Origin: a virus
Lineage: Duplodnaviria > Caudoviricetes
Reading direction: 5' to 3' (one strand)
DNA: 61,938 nt
IMG/VR virus record: IMGVR_UViG_3300025889_000121
Span: 1 to 61,938 of that record
Shown here piece by piece: positions 2,199 through 42,625 of the stretch. The notes under the pieces are model-generated. The model was not told where the DNA came from. It was given only the letters and a program-made list of their open reading frames with translations, and made no database searches. The translations under genes were made by a program, and so were the position numbers. How positions within the stretch are numbered: position 1 is the stretch's first letter; each line of letters opens with the position of its first letter.

Positions 2199-4030
2199 TA
2201 TTTTGCATCCATATAGTTGTCCCCAACTCCTACTTCACAGTCGAGGGGTAAGTCGGAACACCATACTGGAGCCGTAGTCATGCACTCCTTGACGTATGAT
2301 ACGCAATTATCTACTTCATTTTCTTTGCATAACATTACAAGTTCATCGTGAACAGTCATAACTACAGGATACTTTTTAGATACTGCAACTAATTGCTCCC
2401 CAATTATGTCTCTGGCTAACGACTGAATGCAACGTTGAAAAGTTTTTGCTGGGTGTGTGTATTCAACTATTATGCTGTTGCCCATCTTCTTATCATATAC
2501 CCATGTTGCTCTACCATCTTCTGTTTCTATCTGTCTCAAGTTTGGCAAAGGCAATAGCATTTTATTAGGTTTTAGCATTCCTTGTTTTGAAATGCTTTCT
2601 ATTATTCTTTTGTTTCCCATACTATATTTCTTTCCTTTAGAAACAGCTTCTAACATCGATCCTGCTTCGTCCCAAGAATTAACTAGTAAAGGGTTGGATG
2701 CTCTATAGTTATAAACAATACCTTTAATCTCTTCTATATCTTTATCCACACCACCTTGAGTTAAGATAGCGTGCATTTTGTTAGCACCAACACCATAAAT
2801 ACCTGATAGATTAACAACTTTAAATATATAACGCAAGTCTTTGTCTACACTATCATAATCAATTCCCATAATTTCTGCTGCGGACATTTTGTATAAGTCA
2901 ACACCTTTGTTAATCAAATCTATCTTGTTGTAGTCTTGAGCAAACCAATAAGCAAGTCGTAATTCAATATTGCTCAAGTCTGATGCAACTATCTTGTGTC
3001 CTTCTGGAGCGCATATAGCTCTACGGAGCTCAGACATGCGGGGGAGATTTTGTAGATTGATTCCATCTACACCACTCCATCTATGTGATATAACTGCCCC
3101 AGAATATTTCAATGGAACAGGTAGGGTTCCCCTGTTTGCAATAGATATAAAGTTCTCTGTGCGTGTTTCTTCTATGGTTGATTTGTTTCCTATTCGTGCA
3201 GAGGCGAGGGTTTGTATATATGGATCTTCGTGTTCTAGCAGTGCTTTAAAACCTTCGTCTGTCTTAGCAAAAGCGTAGGTATCTTTCCCTGTGGTAGGGC
3301 TTTTTTTCATAGGGACTTTTACTTTCATAGATTTTAAAAGTTCTGCAAATTGAGGGTTACTCATTAGAACTTTTTTATCTACAGCAACGCTATCTAATAG
3401 TTCTTGTTTTCCTGTTTTTATCTTAGCTAAATGTTTTATAAGCAACGCTTTATTTATTTTTAGTTTAGGTTCAGAAAACATTCTTATAGTTAAGTCAATT
3501 AATTTTAATTCAGTAGATGTGAATCTATTGACTAATTGAAAAAACAAAGCGTAAGTTAATTCAACGTCATTCTTACAGTATTCACCGTATGCTTTTAGTT
3601 CATTATATTTAAAGGTTAATCTATGCTTACCTAACGCATCTAAAACTTCTGTTCCTTTTTCTCCCAAGTTATATAGACGTGCTAAGTTCTTAAGAGATAC
3701 AGACTCTGTTAGTCCGTGAATTATGATTCCCATACTCATGGTATCAAACAGGCCTTTTGGTTTTATGTCGAATATCCAACTTAAGATTGACGCATCAAAG
3801 CGCATGTTGTGCCCAAGCACAAACTTGTTTTCTAAATCATAACTATTGAGGAAGTCTTTTGTTTCTTGGTGAGTGCCTGTAAACCATACAGGTTCTTTAT
3901 CGGCTTGTTTTACAGAGACACCTATAACTTCAAATTGTGGATCTCTTATATATTCTTCTGTAGTGTATTTATTTAAGCCGTAGTTTTTATCGTAGTATGT
4001 TTCAAAGTCGATTGTTATTAAGTTCTTCAT
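2198..4030 (-). CDS. polA: DNA polymerase family A with 3'-5' exonuclease
   Basis: ExoI DFET, ExoII HNMRFD, INLQNLP, motif A DLSNIELR, motif B RYIFKVVNLSGIYG, motif C VHDE. Confidence 0.95.
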   Translation of the reverse strand: MKNLITIDFETYYDKNYGLNKYTTEEYIRDPQFEVIGVSVKQADKEPVWFTGTHQETKDFLNSYDLENKFVLGHNMRFDASILSWIFDIKPKGLFDTMSMGIIIHGLTESVSLKNLARLYNLGEKGTEVLDALGKHRLTFKYNELKAYGEYCKNDVELTYALFFQLVNRFTSTELKLIDLTIRMFSEPKLKINKALLIKHLAKIKTGKQELLDSVAVDKKVLMSNPQFAELLKSMKVKVPMKKSPTTGKDTYAFAKTDEGFKALLEHEDPYIQTLASARIGNKSTIEETRTENFISIANRGTLPVPLKYSGAVISHRWSGVDGINLQNLPRMSELRRAICAPEGHKIVASDLSNIELRLAYWFAQDYNKIDLINKGVDLYKMSAAEIMGIDYDSVDKDLRYIFKVVNLSGIYGVGANKMHAILTQGGVDKDIEEIKGIVYNYRASNPLLVNSWDEAGSMLEAVSKGKKYSMGNKRIIESISKQGMLKPNKMLLPLPNLRQIETEDGRATWVYDKKMGNSIIVEYTHPAKTFQRCIQSLARDIIGEQLVAVSKKYPVVMTVHDELVMLCKENEVDNCVSYVKECMTTAPVWCSDLPLDCEVGVGDNYMDAK

Positions 4031-4193
4031 CTAGTCCTTTCTTTTCTTTTTTACAGTAGCCCTGCAAGTTATACTCTCCCATTTGATTTGTATAACCACA
4101 CCACCACTTACCTGCTTGGTTAAATTTTGCAGAGTCGCCACATTTATGACAAACTGCTTTCCCTACCCCCATATCTATATTCCCTTTCTTCAT
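4002..4193 (-). CDS. Small Cys-rich hypothetical protein
   Basis: ORF overlaps both neighbours; CHKC...WWC. Confidence 0.6.
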   Translation of the reverse strand: MKKGNIDMGVGKAVCHKCGDSAKFNQAGKWWCGYTNQMGEYNLQGYCKKEKKGLDEELNNNRL

Positions 4194-4390
4194 ACCTTGT
4201 TTGCATATAACTCATGATCATTACGACATTCAATGGAGCACCACCTCCTGTTGTCACTTTCTTGTATAGGTTCGCCACACCAAATGCACTTGTTTGTGTC
4301 ATTGGTAGGTATCTTTGTGTCAACAGATTTGAGAGTCTTTTCTAACTGTCTCTCAAGTTCGTCATTAGCAACATCAGCTTCGTCTACCAT
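4190..4390 (-). CDS. DksA/TraR-like C4 zinc-finger protein
   Basis: N-terminal DEADVA (DxxDxA) and CIWCGEPI...WCSIEC. Confidence 0.65.
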   Translation of the reverse strand: MVDEADVANDELERQLEKTLKSVDTKIPTNDTNKCIWCGEPIQESDNRRWCSIECRNDHELYANKV

Positions 4391-6558: not shown

Positions 6559-7208
6559 TATTTTTCCTCCCTATAACTAATTTTAAACTCGTTAATCTCT
6601 CTATTAATCATGCGATTAATAATTTGTAGGCCTTCGTTTTCAGGATGCATAGCCGTATAGCCCTTCTTAACAATTTTACTTAATCGTTTTTCCATATCTT
6701 CACGAACAGGATCAGCTTCAGGCAATTGATATCCATGAGCACCCACATGGGGTCTCACTCCTGTTTCAATTTCTAAAGTTACAGGCATATCAGGTGGCAA
6801 GTTTTTTATGTTATTAAGTTCTGCCAAATTTTCCTCTTGACGCGTTGCATCTATATAATACTTTTCCTTATCTAAAAGGGCTCGTAAACTTAGATACTGT
6901 TCTACTTCTGTCCATATAGGATGGCTTGCTTTATAATTTTTAAATGTATGAGTCATATAGTAGTCATCTCTAATATGTGGGTGAAACTCTGCTGCATATT
7001 TCTCCCATAACTCTCTAGATAAAAATTTAGTCATAACCTCACTATAACCCGTTGCACCTGTCTCATAATACTTTTTGATGTTCTTTAATTGAGCATCAGT
7101 TAAAGTTGTTACATCAATTACTCCTTCAAGTTTTTTCATGTGTTGCAAATGTTTTTCAGGAACGTGAACTCCCATTTTAGTCTCCTTCATATTTAATAGT
7201 TTTACCAT
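6558..7208 (-). CDS. Hypothetical protein (true start probably ~7175)
   Basis: Long ORF in operon; GGAG RBS precedes the MGVH start. Confidence 0.7.
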   Translation of the reverse strand: MVKLLNMKETKMGVHVPEKHLQHMKKLEGVIDVTTLTDAQLKNIKKYYETGATGYSEVMTKFLSRELWEKYAAEFHPHIRDDYYMTHTFKNYKASHPIWTEVEQYLSLRALLDKEKYYIDATRQEENLAELNNIKNLPPDMPVTLEIETGVRPHVGAHGYQLPEADPVREDMEKRLSKIVKKGYTAMHPENEGLQIINRMINREINEFKISYREEK

Positions 7209-8325
7209 GTGGTGAAGTCAAGTCTGATGTCACCACCCATAATGTAGGGCAAGTCCAAACTCCACCCCAATCTTGTTCTACATAACCATCGGTGAAAACA
7301 ATGGTGGTCTCAGGTTTAAGTTTTTCACTACGTATATACTCATTGAGACAACCTACATGTGTTCCACCACCTCCACGTGGTTTAGTAGTTGCTTTCAGTC
7401 GTTGATACTCTCCCTCTTTGTATTGTTCCACACCTGCAACTTCGTGGTCCCAATACACAAGCACAACGCTTTTTGGTGTTACGTCTTCACATATAGATAC
7501 AATCTCAGACAAGAATAGATTTATTTCTTCTTGTCCAATAGAACCTGATGTGTCAACACCAATTACAATGTCACCTACGGATTCACCAATCATGGAAGGC
7601 ATGTATATATCTTGCGATACATATCTTCTATGTGGTTTGCGCCACGATGACTTGTCTTTTGATTTGCATATAGAGTTTACAAACTGCCTTAACTCTCTGC
7701 GCCAATCTACTTTCGGTTTTAAGAAGTCTGTCACCCCTCTTATTTGATTGCCTGCCATCTTGCCACGCAGGATTTCACCTTGTCGCAAGGCTTGATCGAT
7801 TTGCTCTTTGACTTTTTTAACTTCGTTATCATCAAGCGCCTCTGCTTCGTCAAACCCATGCTCATCAAGAACCACAGTTACACCATCGCTCTGTGGATTT
7901 TCTTTCTGCAATATGTCAAAGATTTGTTTGGTAGTCATGTTGTCAAACCTTTGGTCATACAAACCTGATTTAGGCATAGCTGCAATGTTTTCATCAGGGT
8001 CGGCATTTTTAATAGTAGCGTTAACTACATAATCAGCCGCCATGTTTGTAAGCATAGGGTTCTTCTTAAACAAATCTTTCCATATATGCATGTGTTGAAA
8101 TGCTTTGTGTATTGCCTCATGCAAGACAATAAAGTTTAGTTCTTTCGTTGGCAGTGTTTGTATCCAATCAGGATTGTAAGTTACATCTCTACCATTAGTT
8201 CCTGCTGTGGGAACTTTGTCAGAGAAATTAACATCACCGATAGACAACACACCAGAGAACAAACAAAACTCTTTGCTACGCATGATAGCAATGTGAGACT
8301 TTGTGACTCTATCTTGTGGTGTCAT
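7177..8325 (-). CDS. Metallopeptidase-like + VWA domain protein (DUF2201-like)
   Basis: HEAIH (HExxH), MIDAS DTSGS, GGGGT, FTDG. Confidence 0.9.
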   Translation of the reverse strand: MTPQDRVTKSHIAIMRSKEFCLFSGVLSIGDVNFSDKVPTAGTNGRDVTYNPDWIQTLPTKELNFIVLHEAIHKAFQHMHIWKDLFKKNPMLTNMAADYVVNATIKNADPDENIAAMPKSGLYDQRFDNMTTKQIFDILQKENPQSDGVTVVLDEHGFDEAEALDDNEVKKVKEQIDQALRQGEILRGKMAGNQIRGVTDFLKPKVDWRRELRQFVNSICKSKDKSSWRKPHRRYVSQDIYMPSMIGESVGDIVIGVDTSGSIGQEEINLFLSEIVSICEDVTPKSVVLVYWDHEVAGVEQYKEGEYQRLKATTKPRGGGGTHVGCLNEYIRSEKLKPETTIVFTDGYVEQDWGGVWTCPTLWVVTSDLTSPHGKTIKYEGD

Positions 8326-8483
8326 TCTGCCTCCTCGACTTCAAAGTCTGAACCTGCTACGTTTTTGTGCTGTTGATATTGTTCTAGTGCAAACTCACAA
8401 GCTTGTAGCTTACTTGTAAATGTTTTAACAACTTTACCAACACCTGTTTTTTGATACTCAACCACTAAGTATTCTTTTTGCAT
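8322..8483 (-). CDS. 53-aa hypothetical protein (MQKEYLVVEYQ...)
   Basis: Manual translation; AGGAG RBS; ATGA coupling to the VWA gene. Confidence 0.7.
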   Translation of the reverse strand: MQKEYLVVEYQKTGVGKVVKTFTSKLQACEFALEQYQQHKNVAGSDFEVEEAE

Positions 8484-8492
8484 GCTAATCTC

Positions 8493-9539
8493 CTAGAAGA
8501 ATTGTTTATTACGCATTGCCCAATCTACAAACTTCTTATTGGTCGCCGCGATAGGTTGTTTACTACCATTCATGATGTTGACTGCAAATAGTGCTTGCAT
8601 CTCCATAGGCAATCTTTCCATGTATGTTAGCCAAGGTTCAAAGTTCTCTTTCGTAATACCCATCAACTCACGCATGACAAGAATAACTTTAGCCGAAGGG
8701 TCGGAAGGAATGTTAGCTTTATCAGGTTGTTTGTATATTGATTCACGTGTAGGCAGTTCGTCAGCCAATGAGAAGAACGCAGCCATGTCTCTAGCAGCTG
8801 ATTCACCTATGGTGCCTGCAAGTGCAGCCATGGTTGTATCAACACCTAGTTCCTTACGTGCTTTGACAATATGTGAGGCCTTGTGCAAAGAACGTGGGGT
8901 AACAAATGCTTCTTGCTCTCTAGTTGGATCAAATATATACATGTTCTCTTTCTGAGATTTATCAAGATAACTAGCAAGACAATGTGGAAATTGTTTTACC
9001 CATGCAATAACTTCTGCTGACAAGTCATTACTGATTGCCCAATTAATCCATTCATCATCACTAGGATTGCGTAGATACACAGATGTGATTCTGTTCTTAG
9101 CATGTGCTTTGAGTGAATCGCCAACACCATCTGTCAACATGTTACCTGTTGAATAGACTATTGAGTCAGGGTGAAACTTAACTGAACCTAGTCTTCTCTC
9201 GAGCATGACTGGTAATAGCATGTTCTTGACTGGCTCACTTGCTTTAGTAATCTCGTCAAGCATGATGATTACAGGCTTACCATGATGTAGTTGAAATCGT
9301 TCGTTAGGGTAGAACGCTGTTGACTTTGTTTCATGATTCATTGCAGGCATAGCCAAGTCACCAAGGTCTAAATCTGCGCAATCAATGTATACAGGTATGT
9401 GGTCAGGATGTTTCTCTGCAAGAGTTTGCAGTATAGATGATTTACCAATTCCAGGCTGACCTTGCACGTGGATAGTGGTAGTAGTGCCAACGCTACTAAT
9501 TAGATTAGTTACGTCTGTTAGATTTACGGTTAGTTGCAT
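8493..9539 (-). CDS. AAA+ ATPase (MoxR/dynein-related type)
   Basis: Walker A GQPGIGKS, Walker B IMLDE, STGN sensor, TPRS. Confidence 0.9.
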   Translation of the reverse strand: MQLTVNLTDVTNLISSVGTTTTIHVQGQPGIGKSSILQTLAEKHPDHIPVYIDCADLDLGDLAMPAMNHETKSTAFYPNERFQLHHGKPVIIMLDEITKASEPVKNMLLPVMLERRLGSVKFHPDSIVYSTGNMLTDGVGDSLKAHAKNRITSVYLRNPSDDEWINWAISNDLSAEVIAWVKQFPHCLASYLDKSQKENMYIFDPTREQEAFVTPRSLHKASHIVKARKELGVDTTMAALAGTIGESAARDMAAFFSLADELPTRESIYKQPDKANIPSDPSAKVILVMRELMGITKENFEPWLTYMERLPMEMQALFAVNIMNGSKQPIAATNKKFVDWAMRNKQFF

Positions 9540-23346: not shown

Positions 23347-23937
23347 ATGGCAGCTTACGGATTAAAACCTGTACAGCGTGTTGATGGTATGCCCTATGCG
23401 GGCGCAACCAGGCTATATAAAATTGACCCTGCTGGTGAAGCAACTAACTTGTTCTATGGACAGGTTGTTAACATCGGCGCGGACGGTTATATTGCTTTAG
23501 CAACAGCCACTGGTGCAGACGCTACTACGAACAACTTAGGTGGTTCAGGCGTTGGTGCTATTGGTGTTTTTGTTGGTTGTGAATATGTCAACGCACAGGG
23601 TCAAGTTATATACGACCAATATTATCCATCAGGCACTGCTAATGGTGGTGACATTGTGGCGTATGTTGTAGATGACCCAAATGCATTATTTCAAGCAGAA
23701 TTAGATGAGACTGCTACGCAAACAATGGTTGGTACTAACACCACTTTTGCTACAGCGCAAACTACTTCTACTGGTTCTACCACTACTGGTGTATCTAACT
23801 CTCAGTTAGACGCAACAGTTGCTACTACAGCTAAAGCATTTAAAATTGTTGCTCTAGCTCCAGATGTATCAACTGCAGCAGTGTTAGTTAAGTTTAACCC
23901 AAGTTTCCATCGCTTCACAAGTGATGCTGGCTTATAA
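23347..23937 (+). CDS. Capsid decoration / minor capsid protein (putative)
   Basis: Immediately upstream of MCP; YGLKPV, GVFVGCEY, VVDDPN. Confidence 0.65.
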   Translation: MAAYGLKPVQRVDGMPYAGATRLYKIDPAGEATNLFYGQVVNIGADGYIALATATGADATTNNLGGSGVGAIGVFVGCEYVNAQGQVIYDQYYPSGTANGGDIVAYVVDDPNALFQAELDETATQTMVGTNTTFATAQTTSTGSTTTGVSNSQLDATVATTAKAFKIVALAPDVSTAAVLVKFNPSFHRFTSDAGL

Positions 23938-23949
23938 GGAGAATAAATC

Positions 23950-24861
23950 ATGGCAATTTCAAGAGCGCAGTTATTAAAAGAATTGCTCCCTGGCCTTAAT
24001 GCTTTATTCGGAATGGAATACCAGCGTTATGGCGAAGAGCACAAAGAGATCTACGAGTCTGAAACTTCAGAAAGATCCTTTGAAGAAGAAACAAAACTAT
24101 CAGGCTTTGGTAATGCACCTGTTAAAGGAGAAGGTTCTGCCATCTCTTATGACAATGCTCAAGAAGCTTGGACAGCTAGATACAACCACGAAACCATTGC
24201 TTTAGGTTTCTCACTAACAGAAGAAGCTGTTGAAGATAACCTCTACGACACTTTATCTGCTCGTTACACTAAAGCATTAGCACGTTCAATGGCTAACACT
24301 AAACAAGTGAAAGCTGCTAACGTTCTTAACAACGGTTTTAGTGGTAGTTATGTAGGTGGTGATGGCAAAGCTTTATTTGCTACAGATCACCCTCTAGTAA
24401 ATGGTGGTACTAACAGTAATACACAGGCAGTTGCTGCCGACTTAAACGAAACTTCATTAGAAAATGCTGTGATTCAAATCGCAGGATGGACAGATGAAAG
24501 AGGTTTATTAATTGCTGCTAAACCACGTAAATTAGTAATCCCACCAAACTTGCAATTCGTTGCAACTCGTTTATTAGATACTGAACAACGTGTCGGTACT
24601 GCTGATAACGACATCAACGCGATCAAGTCAAATGGTGCGATTCCAGAAGGCTATGCTATCAATCATTTCTTGACTGATACAGATGGATACTTCTTAACAA
24701 CCGATGTACCTAATGGTATGAAACATTTTGTTCGTACTCCATTAACTACATCAATGGACGGCGACTTCGACACAGGTAACGTACGTTACAAAGCTCGTGA
24801 GCGTTATTCATTTGGTTGGTCAGATCCCCTCGGCATGTGGGGCTCTCAAGGTGCTGCTTAA
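23950..24861 (+). CDS. Major capsid protein
   Basis: MAISRAQLLKELLPGLNALFG...DGKALFATDHP...YKARERYSFGWSDP; strong RBS; terminator follows. Confidence 0.9.
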   Translation: MAISRAQLLKELLPGLNALFGMEYQRYGEEHKEIYESETSERSFEEETKLSGFGNAPVKGEGSAISYDNAQEAWTARYNHETIALGFSLTEEAVEDNLYDTLSARYTKALARSMANTKQVKAANVLNNGFSGSYVGGDGKALFATDHPLVNGGTNSNTQAVAADLNETSLENAVIQIAGWTDERGLLIAAKPRKLVIPPNLQFVATRLLDTEQRVGTADNDINAIKSNGAIPEGYAINHFLTDTDGYFLTTDVPNGMKHFVRTPLTTSMDGDFDTGNVRYKARERYSFGWSDPLGMWGSQGAA

Positions 24862-24881
24862 TTTGTAAGCGCACTCCTCCT

Positions 24882-24917
24882 GAAAAACCCAGCTCCCTCT
24901 CGGCTGGGTTTTTCTTT
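24882..24917 (+). terminator. Rho-independent terminator after MCP
   Basis: GAAAAACCCAGC/GCTGGGTTTTTC inverted repeat. Confidence 0.85.
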
Positions 24918-24961
24918 ACCTAAAACTCATACATTTCATTAGATACTTTAATACTATCCTT

Positions 24962-24998
24962 TGTTACTATACGTCTAACTGTATTACATGTAATACAG
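24962..24998 (+). promoter_or_regulatory. Extended -10 promoter and perfect 20-bp palindrome upstream of pqqA
   Basis: TGtTACTAT at 24962-24970; CTGTATTACATGTAATACAG at 24979-24998. Confidence 0.55.
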
Positions 24999-25022
24999 AA
25001 TCTAAACTTAAGGAGAAACATT

Positions 25023-25094
25023 ATGTGGACTAAACCAGCAGCTACAGAAATGAGATTTGGCTTTGAAGTAACTATGTACGTATGCAACAAGTAA
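25023..25094 (+). CDS. pqqA: Pyrroloquinoline quinone precursor peptide PqqA (23 aa)
   Basis: [23 protein letters not shown]: canonical MWxKP...R.G.EVTMY with the ExxxY core; AAGGAGA RBS; below the ORF-track length cutoff. Confidence 0.95.
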
Positions 25095-25188
25095 GTATAT
25101 AATTTAAAAACTTATTATCTATTCGGTACGGTGGCTAGGAAACAGCCTGAACCGTTTAAAAGGGGTAATATTTTAAAAGCACCACATT

Positions 25189-25211
25189 AAGAGGCCTAGC
25201 GCCTCTTTTTT
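25189..25211 (+). terminator. Terminator of the pqqA cassette
   Basis: AAGAGGC-ctagc-GCCTCTT followed by T-run. Confidence 0.8.
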
Positions 25212-25212
25212 G

Positions 25213-25241
25213 TTGTATAATTACATGAAATAGCGTATGAT
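25213..25241 (+). promoter_or_regulatory. Sigma70-type promoter
   Basis: TTGTAT-17 bp-TATGAT. Confidence 0.55.
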
Positions 25242-25250
25242 TTTATTTAT

Positions 25251-25322
25251 CTGGGAACATCCAGCTTATCAGACTGCCCCAGCAGACGCATACACGACGG
25301 ATAAGCTTAACTTTGTATGGAG
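25251..25322 (+). ncRNA. Candidate structured 5' leader with two potential pseudoknots
   Basis: Stem AGCTTATC/GATAAGCT, inner CTGC/GCAG hairpin, CTGGG:CCCAG and CATACA:TGTATG pairings, the last abutting the GGAG RBS. Confidence 0.5.
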
Positions 25323-25330
25323 AAATCAAA

Positions 25331-25807
25331 ATGTCAAGTACAACCTTTTCAGGTCCAGTCACATCCACAGCTGGCTTTAATGGACCAGTCGTAGTAGATA
25401 ATACAACTCTTAACACAGGTGCTGCAGTTACAACAACACTTACTCGTGCTCAATCAGGTACTCTTTTTACTGTTGATGGTACAGGTGATATTGTTGTTAA
25501 TATGCCAGCTCTAAGCACAGATAACCCAGGTACAACCTATGAATTCTTTGTTACTACAGCAGTAGGTGCTGGTACAACAGTAACATTTGTATTACCAGGT
25601 TCAGCAGTATCTAATTTCTACGGTGCTTTATCTCTTATGGGTGGCACAGCTGCTAACCCAGCAAGTGACGTTGCAGGCGATACATTAACTTTAGTAAACT
25701 CAACAGCAGTTAATGCAAGAGTTAAACTAACATGTATCACTGATGATGGTGCTAACTCTACATGGAAAGCTGAAACACTTTCTACACCACTCGCAACTAT
25801 TGCTTAA
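25331..25807 (+). CDS. Virion structural protein (head fibre/decoration-like)
   Basis: MSSTTFSGPV N-terminus; Thr/Gly-rich beta protein; start moved to the ATG at 25331. Confidence 0.65.
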   Translation: MSSTTFSGPVTSTAGFNGPVVVDNTTLNTGAAVTTTLTRAQSGTLFTVDGTGDIVVNMPALSTDNPGTTYEFFVTTAVGAGTTVTFVLPGSAVSNFYGALSLMGGTAANPASDVAGDTLTLVNSTAVNARVKLTCITDDGANSTWKAETLSTPLATIA

Positions 25808-25820
25808 TTAGGAGGCTAAC

Positions 25821-26105
25821 ATGGCACAACAAACCGATGTAAAAGCCGCCACGCAAACTGGGGCAACAGGTACTCCTGTAGGACATCGTGCCAGAGTGAA
25901 GAGTATTCATTATCGTTCAACTGGTACCGCAGGTACTATCGTTCTAAAAGACGGTGGTTCTGGCGGCGCAACTAAGTTAACAGTGAATACTCCAGCCGTG
26001 GTAAGTAGTAACGATGTATTTATTCCAGGTGAGGGAATATTGTTTGAAACTGATGTCTATTGCGCATTAACCAATGCAGACGCAGTGACAATATTCTACG
26101 GTTAA
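25821..26105 (+). CDS. Small virion-module protein
   Basis: RVKSI...IPGEGILFETDVY...VTIFYG. Confidence 0.75.
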   Translation: MAQQTDVKAATQTGATGTPVGHRARVKSIHYRSTGTAGTIVLKDGGSGGATKLTVNTPAVVSSNDVFIPGEGILFETDVYCALTNADAVTIFYG

Positions 26106-26107
26106 TC

Positions 26108-26212
26108 ATGGAAGAAGAACCTGACAAGTCTTTGGAAAAAGAAAGTGAAAAATGCGAAGAAAAGCGTGAAGAACTAAAAAGACTGTGGGAAGCTCTAGGA
26201 GATTGCGTATAA
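26108..26212 (+). CDS. 34-aa peptide (MEEEPDKS...LWEALGDCV)
   Basis: Manual translation; fills the gap and abuts the next ATG. Confidence 0.5.
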   Translation: MEEEPDKSLEKESEKCEEKREELKRLWEALGDCV

Positions 26213-41503: not shown

Positions 41504-42625
41504 TTGACACACACAGCCGGGGTATTTAAAGAGAAGAAGTATATTCACCTAAAAGATTTTTTAGATGATCAGAATTGTGCAGAGCTGACACAAATACTAA
41601 AGCAAGCTGTTAAGGATGGCTTAACAGAAAAAGATAGTCAATGTCCAAAGTCACAAGCCGTGCATGGGCATCAAACATTTGACAAGTTATTAGAAGATTT
41701 ATTACCTCACTTTGAAATGGCAAGTGGACTCAAGTTATTACCCACTTATTCGTACGCTAGGTTGTATGCTCCAGGTGAGGAATTAAAAAAGCATACTGAT
41801 CGACCAGCTTGTGAGATTAGTGCAACAGTTACGCTAGGCTTTGATGGTAAGGTATGGCCTATCTTTATGGATGGGCATGCAGTCAATATGAAAGTAGGCG
41901 ACGCTGTTTTATATCGTGGACAAGAAGTAGAGCATTGGCGTGGTGAATACACTCAAGGTGAATGGCAAGCACAAGTATTCTTACATTATGTAGATGCTAA
42001 TGGGTCACACAAAGATGAGAAGTATGATGGTAGAGAAGCATTAGGTAAGCCTAAAGCACATCAACAAACTCAGCGTGTATTAACAGATTGTGCTGTATTT
42101 GAATCACATCTAACCACATCATTCTGTCAGAATATGATTACTGAATACAGTAAAGAAGAACATGACAAACTTGACCCTGTTATTGGTGGTAGTGGAGATG
42201 AAGGCACAGTTGATAAAGATATACGTGATGTTAAGCGTTTGATGTTGCCACAGAACCAAGGCATTGGCGGCATACTAACCTCAACCGCACTTAATGCTAA
42301 TCACTATTGGTGGCAATATAACATTACACATAGTAATCAAACAGAGTTTTTAATGTATGAACCAGACGGACATTACAATCCGCACGTTGATACATTTCAC
42401 ATGCACACCGATGAGACTAGGAAACTTACGGCTTTGGCTTTTTTGAATGATGATTTTGAAGGTGGAAAATTTTTTCTCAATGTAGGGGGAACACCATTTT
42501 ATCCTCCACAACAAGCTGGAACTGTGCTAGTATTTCCTTCATACATGGTGCATGGCGTAGAGCCAGTAACAAAAGGGGTTAGATATTCTGTGGTGACATG
42601 GATGGTAGGACCTTATTTTAAATAG
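41504..42625 (+). CDS. Tandem two-domain 2OG-Fe(II) oxygenase (prolyl-hydroxylase-like)
   Basis: Domain 1 HTD...EHWR; domain 2 HVD...HGVEPVTKGVRYS. Confidence 0.85.
   Translation: MTHTAGVFKEKKYIHLKDFLDDQNCAELTQILKQAVKDGLTEKDSQCPKSQAVHGHQTFDKLLEDLLPHFEMASGLKLLPTYSYARLYAPGEELKKHTDRPACEISATVTLGFDGKVWPIFMDGHAVNMKVGDAVLYRGQEVEHWRGEYTQGEWQAQVFLHYVDANGSHKDEKYDGREALGKPKAHQQTQRVLTDCAVFESHLTTSFCQNMITEYSKEEHDKLDPVIGGSGDEGTVDKDIRDVKRLMLPQNQGIGGILTSTALNANHYWWQYNITHSNQTEFLMYEPDGHYNPHVDTFHMHTDETRKLTALAFLNDDFEGGKFFLNVGGTPFYPPQQAGTVLVFPSYMVHGVEPVTKGVRYSVVTWMVGPYFK

Follow-up and report, generated by a model that had tools for sequence, protein, structure and literature searches.

A stand-alone pqqA cassette after the major head gene of an HTVC023P-type phage, and its recurrence in phages of Methylophilaceae

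A phage of the HTVC023P type holds an intact, stand-alone pqqA gene directly after its major head gene, and by sequence this gene is an auxiliary metabolic gene candidate of clear identity and integrity. The window, that is, the whole stretch of DNA analysed, is a single, linear IMG/VR virus record of 61,938 bases with an estimated completeness of 98%. The pqqA open reading frame was confirmed as a previous sequence-only reading had written it, at 25023-25094 (+) with 23 aa and a strong ribosome-binding site (AAGGAG, 25010-25015). The peptide, proposed there to be PqqA, scored 42.4 bits against PF08042 (cut-off 21.1) and 45.1 bits against the NCBIfam equivalog TIGR02107 (cut-off 20), both about twice the cut-offs. 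The Glu-x3-Tyr motif is present as E15-V-T-M-Y19 and was invariant in 18 of 18 aligned copies, and with 23 aa and AAGGAG 7 nt before the ATG, the frame has the size (about 20 to 30 aa) and the own translation start of a PqqA. By profile, motif and size, the open reading frame is identified as PqqA. PqqA is reported to be the necessary precursor of PQQ; PqqE and its chaperone PqqD cross-link the Glu and Tyr of the peptide, and PqqB and PqqC finish the cofactor (PMC9851590). Profile models of PqqB, PqqC, PqqD, and PqqE found no match in the whole window and were positive in two host genomes, in line with the earlier statement that no other pqq gene is present; the PQQ methanol/ethanol dehydrogenase family likewise had no match in the window, the same model being positive in both host genomes. 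As for its candidacy as an auxiliary gene, pqqA sits between the head gene and the structural genes of a 98%-complete virus record, it was found at the same place in seven other contigs, in the complete genome G035 and in the contig L191 described below, and it is a close homologue of a host gene, with 82-89% nucleotide identity to Methylophilaceae pqqA.

The cassette and the frame in which it lies comprise the following features.

23950-24861 (+): major head (capsid) protein gene, the upstream neighbour of the cassette
24882-24918 (+): terminator 1, a GC-rich hairpin (24882-24914) plus U-run that follows the head gene; conserved in the relatives L010 and L014
24962-24970 (+): possible extended -10, TGtTACTAT, putative and read from the sequence
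24979-24998 (+): perfect palindrome of 20 nt that folds as a hairpin with an 8-bp stem, close behind the predicted transcript start (near 24977)
25010-25015 (+): ribosome-binding site AAGGAG, 7 nt before the ATG and within the host-like stretch
25023-25094 (+): pqqA, the 23-aa PQQ precursor peptide (PF08042, TIGR02107)
25095-25188 (+): 3' UTR of about 95 nt with a structured element (core 25130-25162), predicted as a long hairpin
25189-25213 (+): terminator 2, the cassette's own, from a scan call (25189-25207) and the fold
25216-25221 (+): perfect TATAAT of the next gene's promoter, after terminator 2
25263-25307 (+): leader stem-loop of the next gene (motif 25273-25294), which belongs to the frame of the slot and lies outside the cassette
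25331-25807 (+): variable downstream gene, 158 aa, of no family (no PHROG match)

The cassette had been described as lying between the head-gene terminator and the next promoter and as having a terminator of its own, and both descriptions held. Terminator 1 folded at -19.8 kcal/mol (z -6.5), with 0 of 200 shuffles as good; it was missed by the terminator scan, perhaps because its U-run falls inside the extended stem. Terminator 2 folded at -11.8 kcal/mol (z -4.0), again with 0 of 200 shuffles as good. The claim of an extended -10 stood in part. The element is readable at 24962-24970, with 4 of 6 positions matching TATAAT plus the TG, and aligned relatives have TATAAT or CATAAT near the site, but the promoter scan, whose matches were not above chance, called no promoter on the + strand near pqqA; an extended -10 upstream of the gene is plausible on these sequence features. 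The fold energy of the 5' palindrome was unexceptional (z -0.5). Reading of the alignments, however, found a short hairpin of differing sequence between the -10 region and the ribosome-binding site in 8 of 8 HTVC023P-type pqqA loci, and it is only this positional recurrence with differing sequences that would speak for a role of the hairpin. The 3' UTR together with the terminator gave a z of -2.1, with 6 of 200 shuffles as good. Its motif is common only to the window and one relative (L010/L272) and was not found in host orphan copies of pqqA, and for this reason the element was rejected as a general pqqA-associated RNA.

Downstream of the cassette, TTGTTGTATAAT at the next gene's promoter was conserved in L014, L010, L006, and L012. 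The leader stem-loop that follows has an 8-bp outer and a 4-bp inner stem, and 4 of its 12 predicted pairs had compensatory changes in 10 sequences. The leader motif occurred in 21 of 327 loci, some of them without pqqA, and it had no Rfam match; it may be an element that affects translation or stability in HTVC023P-type late genes.

The phage status of the window was supported by a PHROG and profile scan of its proteins, which placed a large terminase and a portal upstream of the head gene, and assigned the product of 23950-24861 (+) as a major head protein (PHROG 371, E 8e-23). The head protein is 67-70% identical to annotated capsid proteins, with values of 66.8% for HTVC023P, 65.2% for HTVC027P, and 69.7% for MinM2, Pag-Yong1, and Pra-JY27. 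The large terminase is 49.3% identical to that of HTVC023P and 50.6% to that of HTVC027P, and about 50% also to those of DSL-LC04 and 023Pt_psg01. By head protein and terminase, the nearest relatives are HTVC023P/HTVC027P and DSL-LC04, and the genome, at 61.9 kb, falls in the same class of about 60 kb. Judged from these values, the phage is a distinct lineage of the HTVC023P-type group, the identities being low enough for a separate genus-level lineage. Its other genes include a family-A DNA polymerase, a DUF927 primase-helicase, a PD-(D/E)XK nuclease, and glycine-rich tail fibre proteins; neither an integrase nor a further host-like metabolic gene was found among the 30 window proteins scanned, and neither a tRNA nor an Rfam family was found in the window. 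Two further regions were recorded, namely a DUF2201 metallopeptidase/VWA-like protein adjoining an AAA_5 ATPase at 7177-9539 (-), and a 2OG-Fe(II) oxygenase domain protein amid tail genes at 41504-42625 (+). Among the database records, OQ594354, OL906435, and PP438419 all have 65,014 bases and match the head protein and terminase of the window with the same statistics, and each was deposited under a different cyanobacterial host.

The slot after the head gene was then compared among relatives. More than 600 IMG/VR relatives of the head protein were found, the best 80 at 82-92% identity, whereas the genes on either side of it reach only about 35-45%; the head protein appears as an unusually conserved capsid within an otherwise fast-diverging phage group (L002-L081). 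A homologue of the gene after pqqA (25331-25807) was present in only 2 of the 80 relatives. The sequence-only reading had called for a survey of this locus in related phages. Among the 70 related loci in which 400 nt or more follow the head gene (ten loci with less were left out), pqqA was found in 7, always just downstream of the head gene. A quick maximum-likelihood tree built from the head protein placed 7 of the 8 rows with pqqA, the window included, in one 9-row subclade (SH-aLRT 84) and L056 elsewhere; two changes suffice to explain the distribution of pqqA on this tree, and only 1 of 500 label shuffles was as low. Outside the subclade, none of 12 long relatives, of which six are 99% complete or more, had a PqqA anywhere in the genome, both positive controls being matched. 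Two subclade members, the short contigs L002 and L015, are without pqqA at this site, and the gene is therefore dispensable. L015 has the head gene, one terminator, a promoter-like element, the conserved leader, and the window's next gene, but no pqqA block; in the window, this frame additionally contains a block made of the second terminator, the 5' hairpin, the ribosome-binding site, pqqA, and the 3' UTR. This comparison confirmed at the sequence level what had been supposed, that pqqA is a self-contained, cassette-like insert.

To trace the source of the insert, one genome per prokaryote species was searched with a degenerate pattern for the 11-residue core of the peptide. The core variant occurred in at least 120 bacterial stretches. 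By name, 91 of the 120 listed belong to genera of Methylophilaceae/Methylophilales/OM43, 25 are labelled only at a higher rank, and the remaining 4 have other names (an Acidovorax MAG with two contigs, a Rhodocyclaceae, and a Pseudomonadales). Judged by these names, the core variant occurs, among the matches listed, almost only in Methylophilaceae, and the peptide is of the Methylophilaceae type, in line with the resemblance stated in the earlier reading. The peptide of one Methylotenera MAG (L143) is exactly that of the window, and the common host variants are one residue away. A script counted 87 pqqA copies in the first 80 host loci. Two complete Methylophilaceae host genomes have one pqqBCDE set each and 3 and 4 pqqA copies, in agreement with the 3-12 copies reported per Methylophilaceae genome (Beck et al. 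2014, PMC4109929). In Methylopumilus, with a genome of 1.3 Mb, every one of the three copies is remote from pqqBCDE, and so are three of the four in KH-45; the window pqqA also has no pqqBCDE neighbourhood, and this feature is thus not family-defining.

The window is similar to host DNA only over about 24990-25104, which covers the ribosome-binding site and the open reading frame, at 82-89% identity; the promoter region, the 3' region, and the terminators had no similarity to host loci in the alignments. Host orphan copies consist of a ribosome-binding site, a 23-aa open reading frame, and, no more than about 25 nt further on, a GC hairpin followed by a U-run. The window copy is thus like the host orphans (PMC4109929) in its 23 aa, its core, and its layout as a mini-cassette of ribosome-binding site, frame, and terminator away from pqqBCDE, and unlike them in its unrelated flanks, its own 5' hairpin, its 3' UTR of about 95 nt, and its AGA codon for Arg11. 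These likenesses suggest that the ribosome-binding site and the frame were captured by the phage lineage from a Methylophilaceae host.

Selection on the captured gene was examined in an alignment of 14 phage and 4 host copies. Across these 18 copies, the 11 core codons had 8 variable nucleotide columns, in which all changes were synonymous, and amino-acid changes were found only at positions 4, 6, 8, and 20-23. The codon for Arg11 is AGA in 7 of the 14 phage copies and CGT in all four host copies. The pattern in these sequences shows selection on the peptide and not on the nucleotides. A side observation concerns a rare variant with Ser4 and Lys6, which is common to the HTVC023P-type contig L012 (5450-5521) and the unrelated OM43 phage MEP301 (L087, 2501-2572), and which may point to an exchange between phages or to a common source in a host.

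These data bear on the question of whether the gene is a neutral passenger, one of the numerous dispersed host cassettes picked up by illegitimate recombination and carried for a while without benefit. The 3-12 dispersed host copies (PMC4109929), the variability of the slot after the head gene, and the two subclade members without pqqA would all suit such a passenger. We nevertheless consider it unlikely, because 14 of 14 phage copies are undamaged and preceded by a purine-rich ribosome-binding site, the variation of the core codons is purely synonymous with half of the phage copies shifted to AGA, pqqA recurs in several unrelated lineages at differing genome places, and it was kept across a subclade in which the neighbouring genes have diverged to about 35-48% identity. 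Alternatively, the host-like stretch could serve as a homology handle for recombination with host pqqA copies, by integration or DNA exchange, and not for peptide supply. About 100 nt are indeed similar to multi-copy host loci, and in several carrier phages pqqA adjoins the recombination genes Erf and YqaJ. However, the identity is just 82-89% with no long exact runs in the alignments shown, no integrase is among the 30 proteins scanned, and it is the peptide that is under selection, with the whole frame and its ribosome-binding site always kept; we regard a recombination role as very improbable.

With regard to the host, the sequence-only reading had proposed an OM43/Methylophilaceae-type methylotroph. 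The peptide variant upheld the Methylophilaceae part, whereas OM43 was disfavoured. Of 20 public runs holding the stretch, which stem from 16 studies and are perhaps not independent, 15 were labelled freshwater, 2 aquatic, 2 estuary, and 1 marine, and a freshwater member of Methylophilaceae is therefore the more likely host than marine OM43. One locus does not fit readily. L191, a 12-kb contig (C455) of assembly G043, encodes a head protein 86% identical to the window's, pqqA at 3606-3677, and the same leader, the relative's region being 2527-4327. G043 (3.3 Mb, at least 455 contigs) is filed as a Gammaproteobacteria bacterium; it had no PqqC, no methanol dehydrogenase over cut-off and no second pqqA, and its 16S is clearly unlike those of the two Methylophilaceae compared. 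Either L191 was binned wrongly, or it is a genuine exception. Together with the 4 otherwise-named MAG matches among the 120 listed, it is the evidence for a host among other Gammaproteobacteria, in which the peptide would serve PQQ-dependent sugar or alcohol dehydrogenases, or nothing. Yet PqqA would be unusable in G043, which has no PqqC, a 12-kb contig among at least 455 may reflect binning or co-assembly, and the peptide variant as well as every cultured carrier phage point to Methylophilales. A host that is not a methylotroph thus seems quite unlikely. As for the peptide itself, small phage peptides can be regulators, and this one could in principle tie up PqqD/E or act as a signal or decoy, lowering host PQQ. 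Nothing specific points to such interference, and a peptide identical to the L143 host copy and one residue from the common host variants should act as a substrate, making interference the least probable of the explanations considered here.

The window peptide was further searched by tblastn against 50,697 phage records. Only 12 records matched, comprising 9 cultured Methylophilales phages, 1 uncultured podovirus, and 2 'Acinetobacter phage' contigs. The cultured carriers, about 9-10 records, are Venkman, P19250A, MEP301, MEP401, MEP402, and four Melnitz isolates; HIM624-A, phiMB624-A, MEP431-434, Venkman EXVC038S, MG-MTP1, and RSA-MFP1, which are named in NCBI taxonomy, were unmatched and are perhaps absent from the collection. 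The PqqA of the cultured phages is intact, has 23-24 aa and a ribosome-binding site, and is 73-91% identical to the window peptide. These phages resemble the window in carrying an intact stand-alone PqqA, and a profile search of Venkman and Melnitz found no PqqB-E; they differ in belonging to other phage lineages and in the genome places of the gene, which lies among recombination genes, beside tRNAs, or at the genome end. In the records of Venkman, P19250A, MEP301, and MEP402, nothing is annotated over pqqA, and in those of Melnitz (L084, 2461-2556) and MW202481 (L085, 2067-2195) a 'hypothetical protein' on the wrong strand covers it. Gene callers thus either skip pqqA or call the wrong strand, and so it was missed. 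Conversely, 23 named phages have the window's head protein, with hosts that include SAR11, Roseobacter, cyanobacteria, and Caulobacter, and none of the 23 is among the 12 pqqA-matching records. The 'Acinetobacter phage' contig inspected (MD-2021a, L088, CAKLQF020000010.1) has a whole pqqABCDE operon beside ppk and was set aside as probably bacterial DNA.

In IMG/VR, at least 120 stretches had the peptide-core pattern. Whole-record HMM searches of the 40 contigs of at least 10 kb out of 80 IMG/VR loci listed found no PqqC, no PqqE over cut-off, and one methanol dehydrogenase. The window's head-protein type was present in 8 of these 40 contigs, and 5 of 6 near-complete pqqA-bearing genomes (36-44 kb) belong to other lineages. 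By these searches, pqqA alone is the rule among the listed pqqA-bearing viral contigs of at least 10 kb, and pqqA, on the same sequence evidence, follows the host rather than the phage lineage, recurring in unrelated lineages of Methylophilaceae phages where annotation has missed it. It is quite possible, although we propose it tentatively, that stand-alone pqqA is a signature auxiliary gene of Methylophilaceae phages, captured independently by at least four or five unrelated lineages: the 36-kb Venkman/P19250A/MEP301-like, the 44-kb MEP40x-like, the 62-66-kb HTVC023P-type, and the T4-like Melnitz phages, and the phages of Lake Baikal.

That pqqA might already have been noted in viruses was suspected in the earlier reading, and the suspicion proved right, leaving the novelty lower than assumed. 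PqqA was published in 2020 for T4-like Methylophilaceae viruses of Lake Baikal, population VP_266 (Coutinho et al. 2020, Microbiome 8:163, PMC7678222), and in a 2026 paper pqqA, pqqD, and pqqE of viruses are counted among the phosphorus-cycling genes (PMC13188868); a literature search on phage or viral pqqA found no such report beyond these two. VP_266 is like the window in its phage PqqA, its predicted Methylophilaceae host, and the interpretation as a booster of methanol oxidation (PMC7678222). The Baikal phages differ in being T4-like and in also having a methanol dehydrogenase, with a partner population that has radical-SAM and SAM-cycle genes, whereas the window, a 62-kb HTVC023P-type phage, has pqqA by itself, at a defined site behind the head gene. 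In the papers on Venkman, MEP301, MEP401/402, and Melnitz, 'pqq' occurs in the main text only where PQQ is a medium supplement, although the supplements could mention it, and the HTVC023P-type metagenome paper contains neither 'pqq' nor 'Methylophil' nor 'OM43'. Phage PqqA itself is therefore already published, and the unreported part is its breadth across unrelated lineages of Methylophilaceae phages.

Given an intact and selected peptide of host type, we consider it likely that the phage PqqA is functional and feeds precursor peptide to the host PqqBCDE, keeping methanol-derived energy running. One PqqA peptide is spent per PQQ, and the hosts themselves multiply only pqqA; for these reasons, the phage copy is read as the supply of one consumable. 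Under this supply reading, one lineage within the HTVC023P-type group would have taken the ribosome-binding site and the frame from a Methylophilaceae host, and they would now lie behind the major head gene in a monocistronic mini-cassette, made up of a weak promoter, the 5' hairpin, the ribosome-binding site, the frame, and its own terminator, that mimics the dispersed orphan pqqA cassettes of the host. During infection, the phage copy would provide the only consumable of the pathway, longer-lived host PqqD/E, PqqB, and PqqC would convert the phage peptide to PQQ for the host XoxF/MxaF methanol dehydrogenase, and methanol-derived energy would go on after host transcription fails. Transcription of phage pqqA, its processing by host enzymes, and its benefit to the phage are what we infer here. 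In an OM43 strain, xoxF was reported to be transcribed more highly than any other gene (PMC5120137), and this implies that much cofactor is needed.

Several points weigh against the supply reading. The hosts already own 3-12 pqqA copies (PMC4109929). In acetic-acid bacteria, extra pqqAB dosage is reported to have raised PQQ by 29% only, with a cited single-gene ranking of pqqB above pqqA, so that the gain from extra pqqA dosage would be modest (PMC7936290). Within our own data, L002 and L015 are without pqqA, L191 lies in the non-methylotroph assembly G043, and the promoter is weak and without a scan call. Furthermore, PQQ is a catalytic cofactor that is unspent in turnover, which counts against a need for new PQQ in a short infection.

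Contigs of four metatranscriptome runs were compared with positions 23900-26200. The head gene and the next gene had exact-match contigs, which may include DNA in the RNA libraries, and the cassette flanks at 24901-24977 and 25132-25208 had no cover in any of the four runs. In run X11, a contig with a word depth of about 4,800 covered 24978-25131, with the substitutions 25053 A>C, 25055 A>T, and 25061 C>T, and it diverged upstream of 25011; by these substitutions and the loose end, this RNA contig stems from another pqqA copy and not from the window's. It has host-like synonymous codons, and the head-gene contigs had depths of tens to low hundreds, contig depth being a poor measure. Some pqqA copy thus seems very abundant in the X11 metatranscriptome. 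The RNA contigs of the next gene start at 25297 (X11 and X16, from two studies) and at 25290 (X18). Both positions fall within the leader stem-loop and hint weakly at a 5' end or a site of processing there.

The cyanophage psbA offers an analogy, as the phage there carries a copy of the fastest-consumed part of the host's energy-harvesting machinery and leaves the rest to the host; psbA, however, encodes a protein subunit, whereas the product of pqqA is a peptide that is sacrificed as the substrate of a cofactor pathway. To our knowledge, pqqA, at 69 nt, is the smallest known auxiliary gene. If stand-alone pqqA is a signature gene of Methylophilaceae phages, the supply of precursor peptide, and not the enzymes, would be the labile bottleneck of methanol oxidation in infected cells, and the 69-nt gene would be a practical and cheap marker for assigning uncultured phages to methylotroph hosts. 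In coastal and fresh waters, Methylophilaceae (OM43, LD28/Methylopumilus, and Methylotenera) rank among the major consumers of methanol, and the methanol dehydrogenase that they use depends on PQQ. The question is open to experiment in four existing phage-host culture systems, and if phages do top up the sole consumable of PQQ synthesis, viral infection would directly shape C1 turnover.
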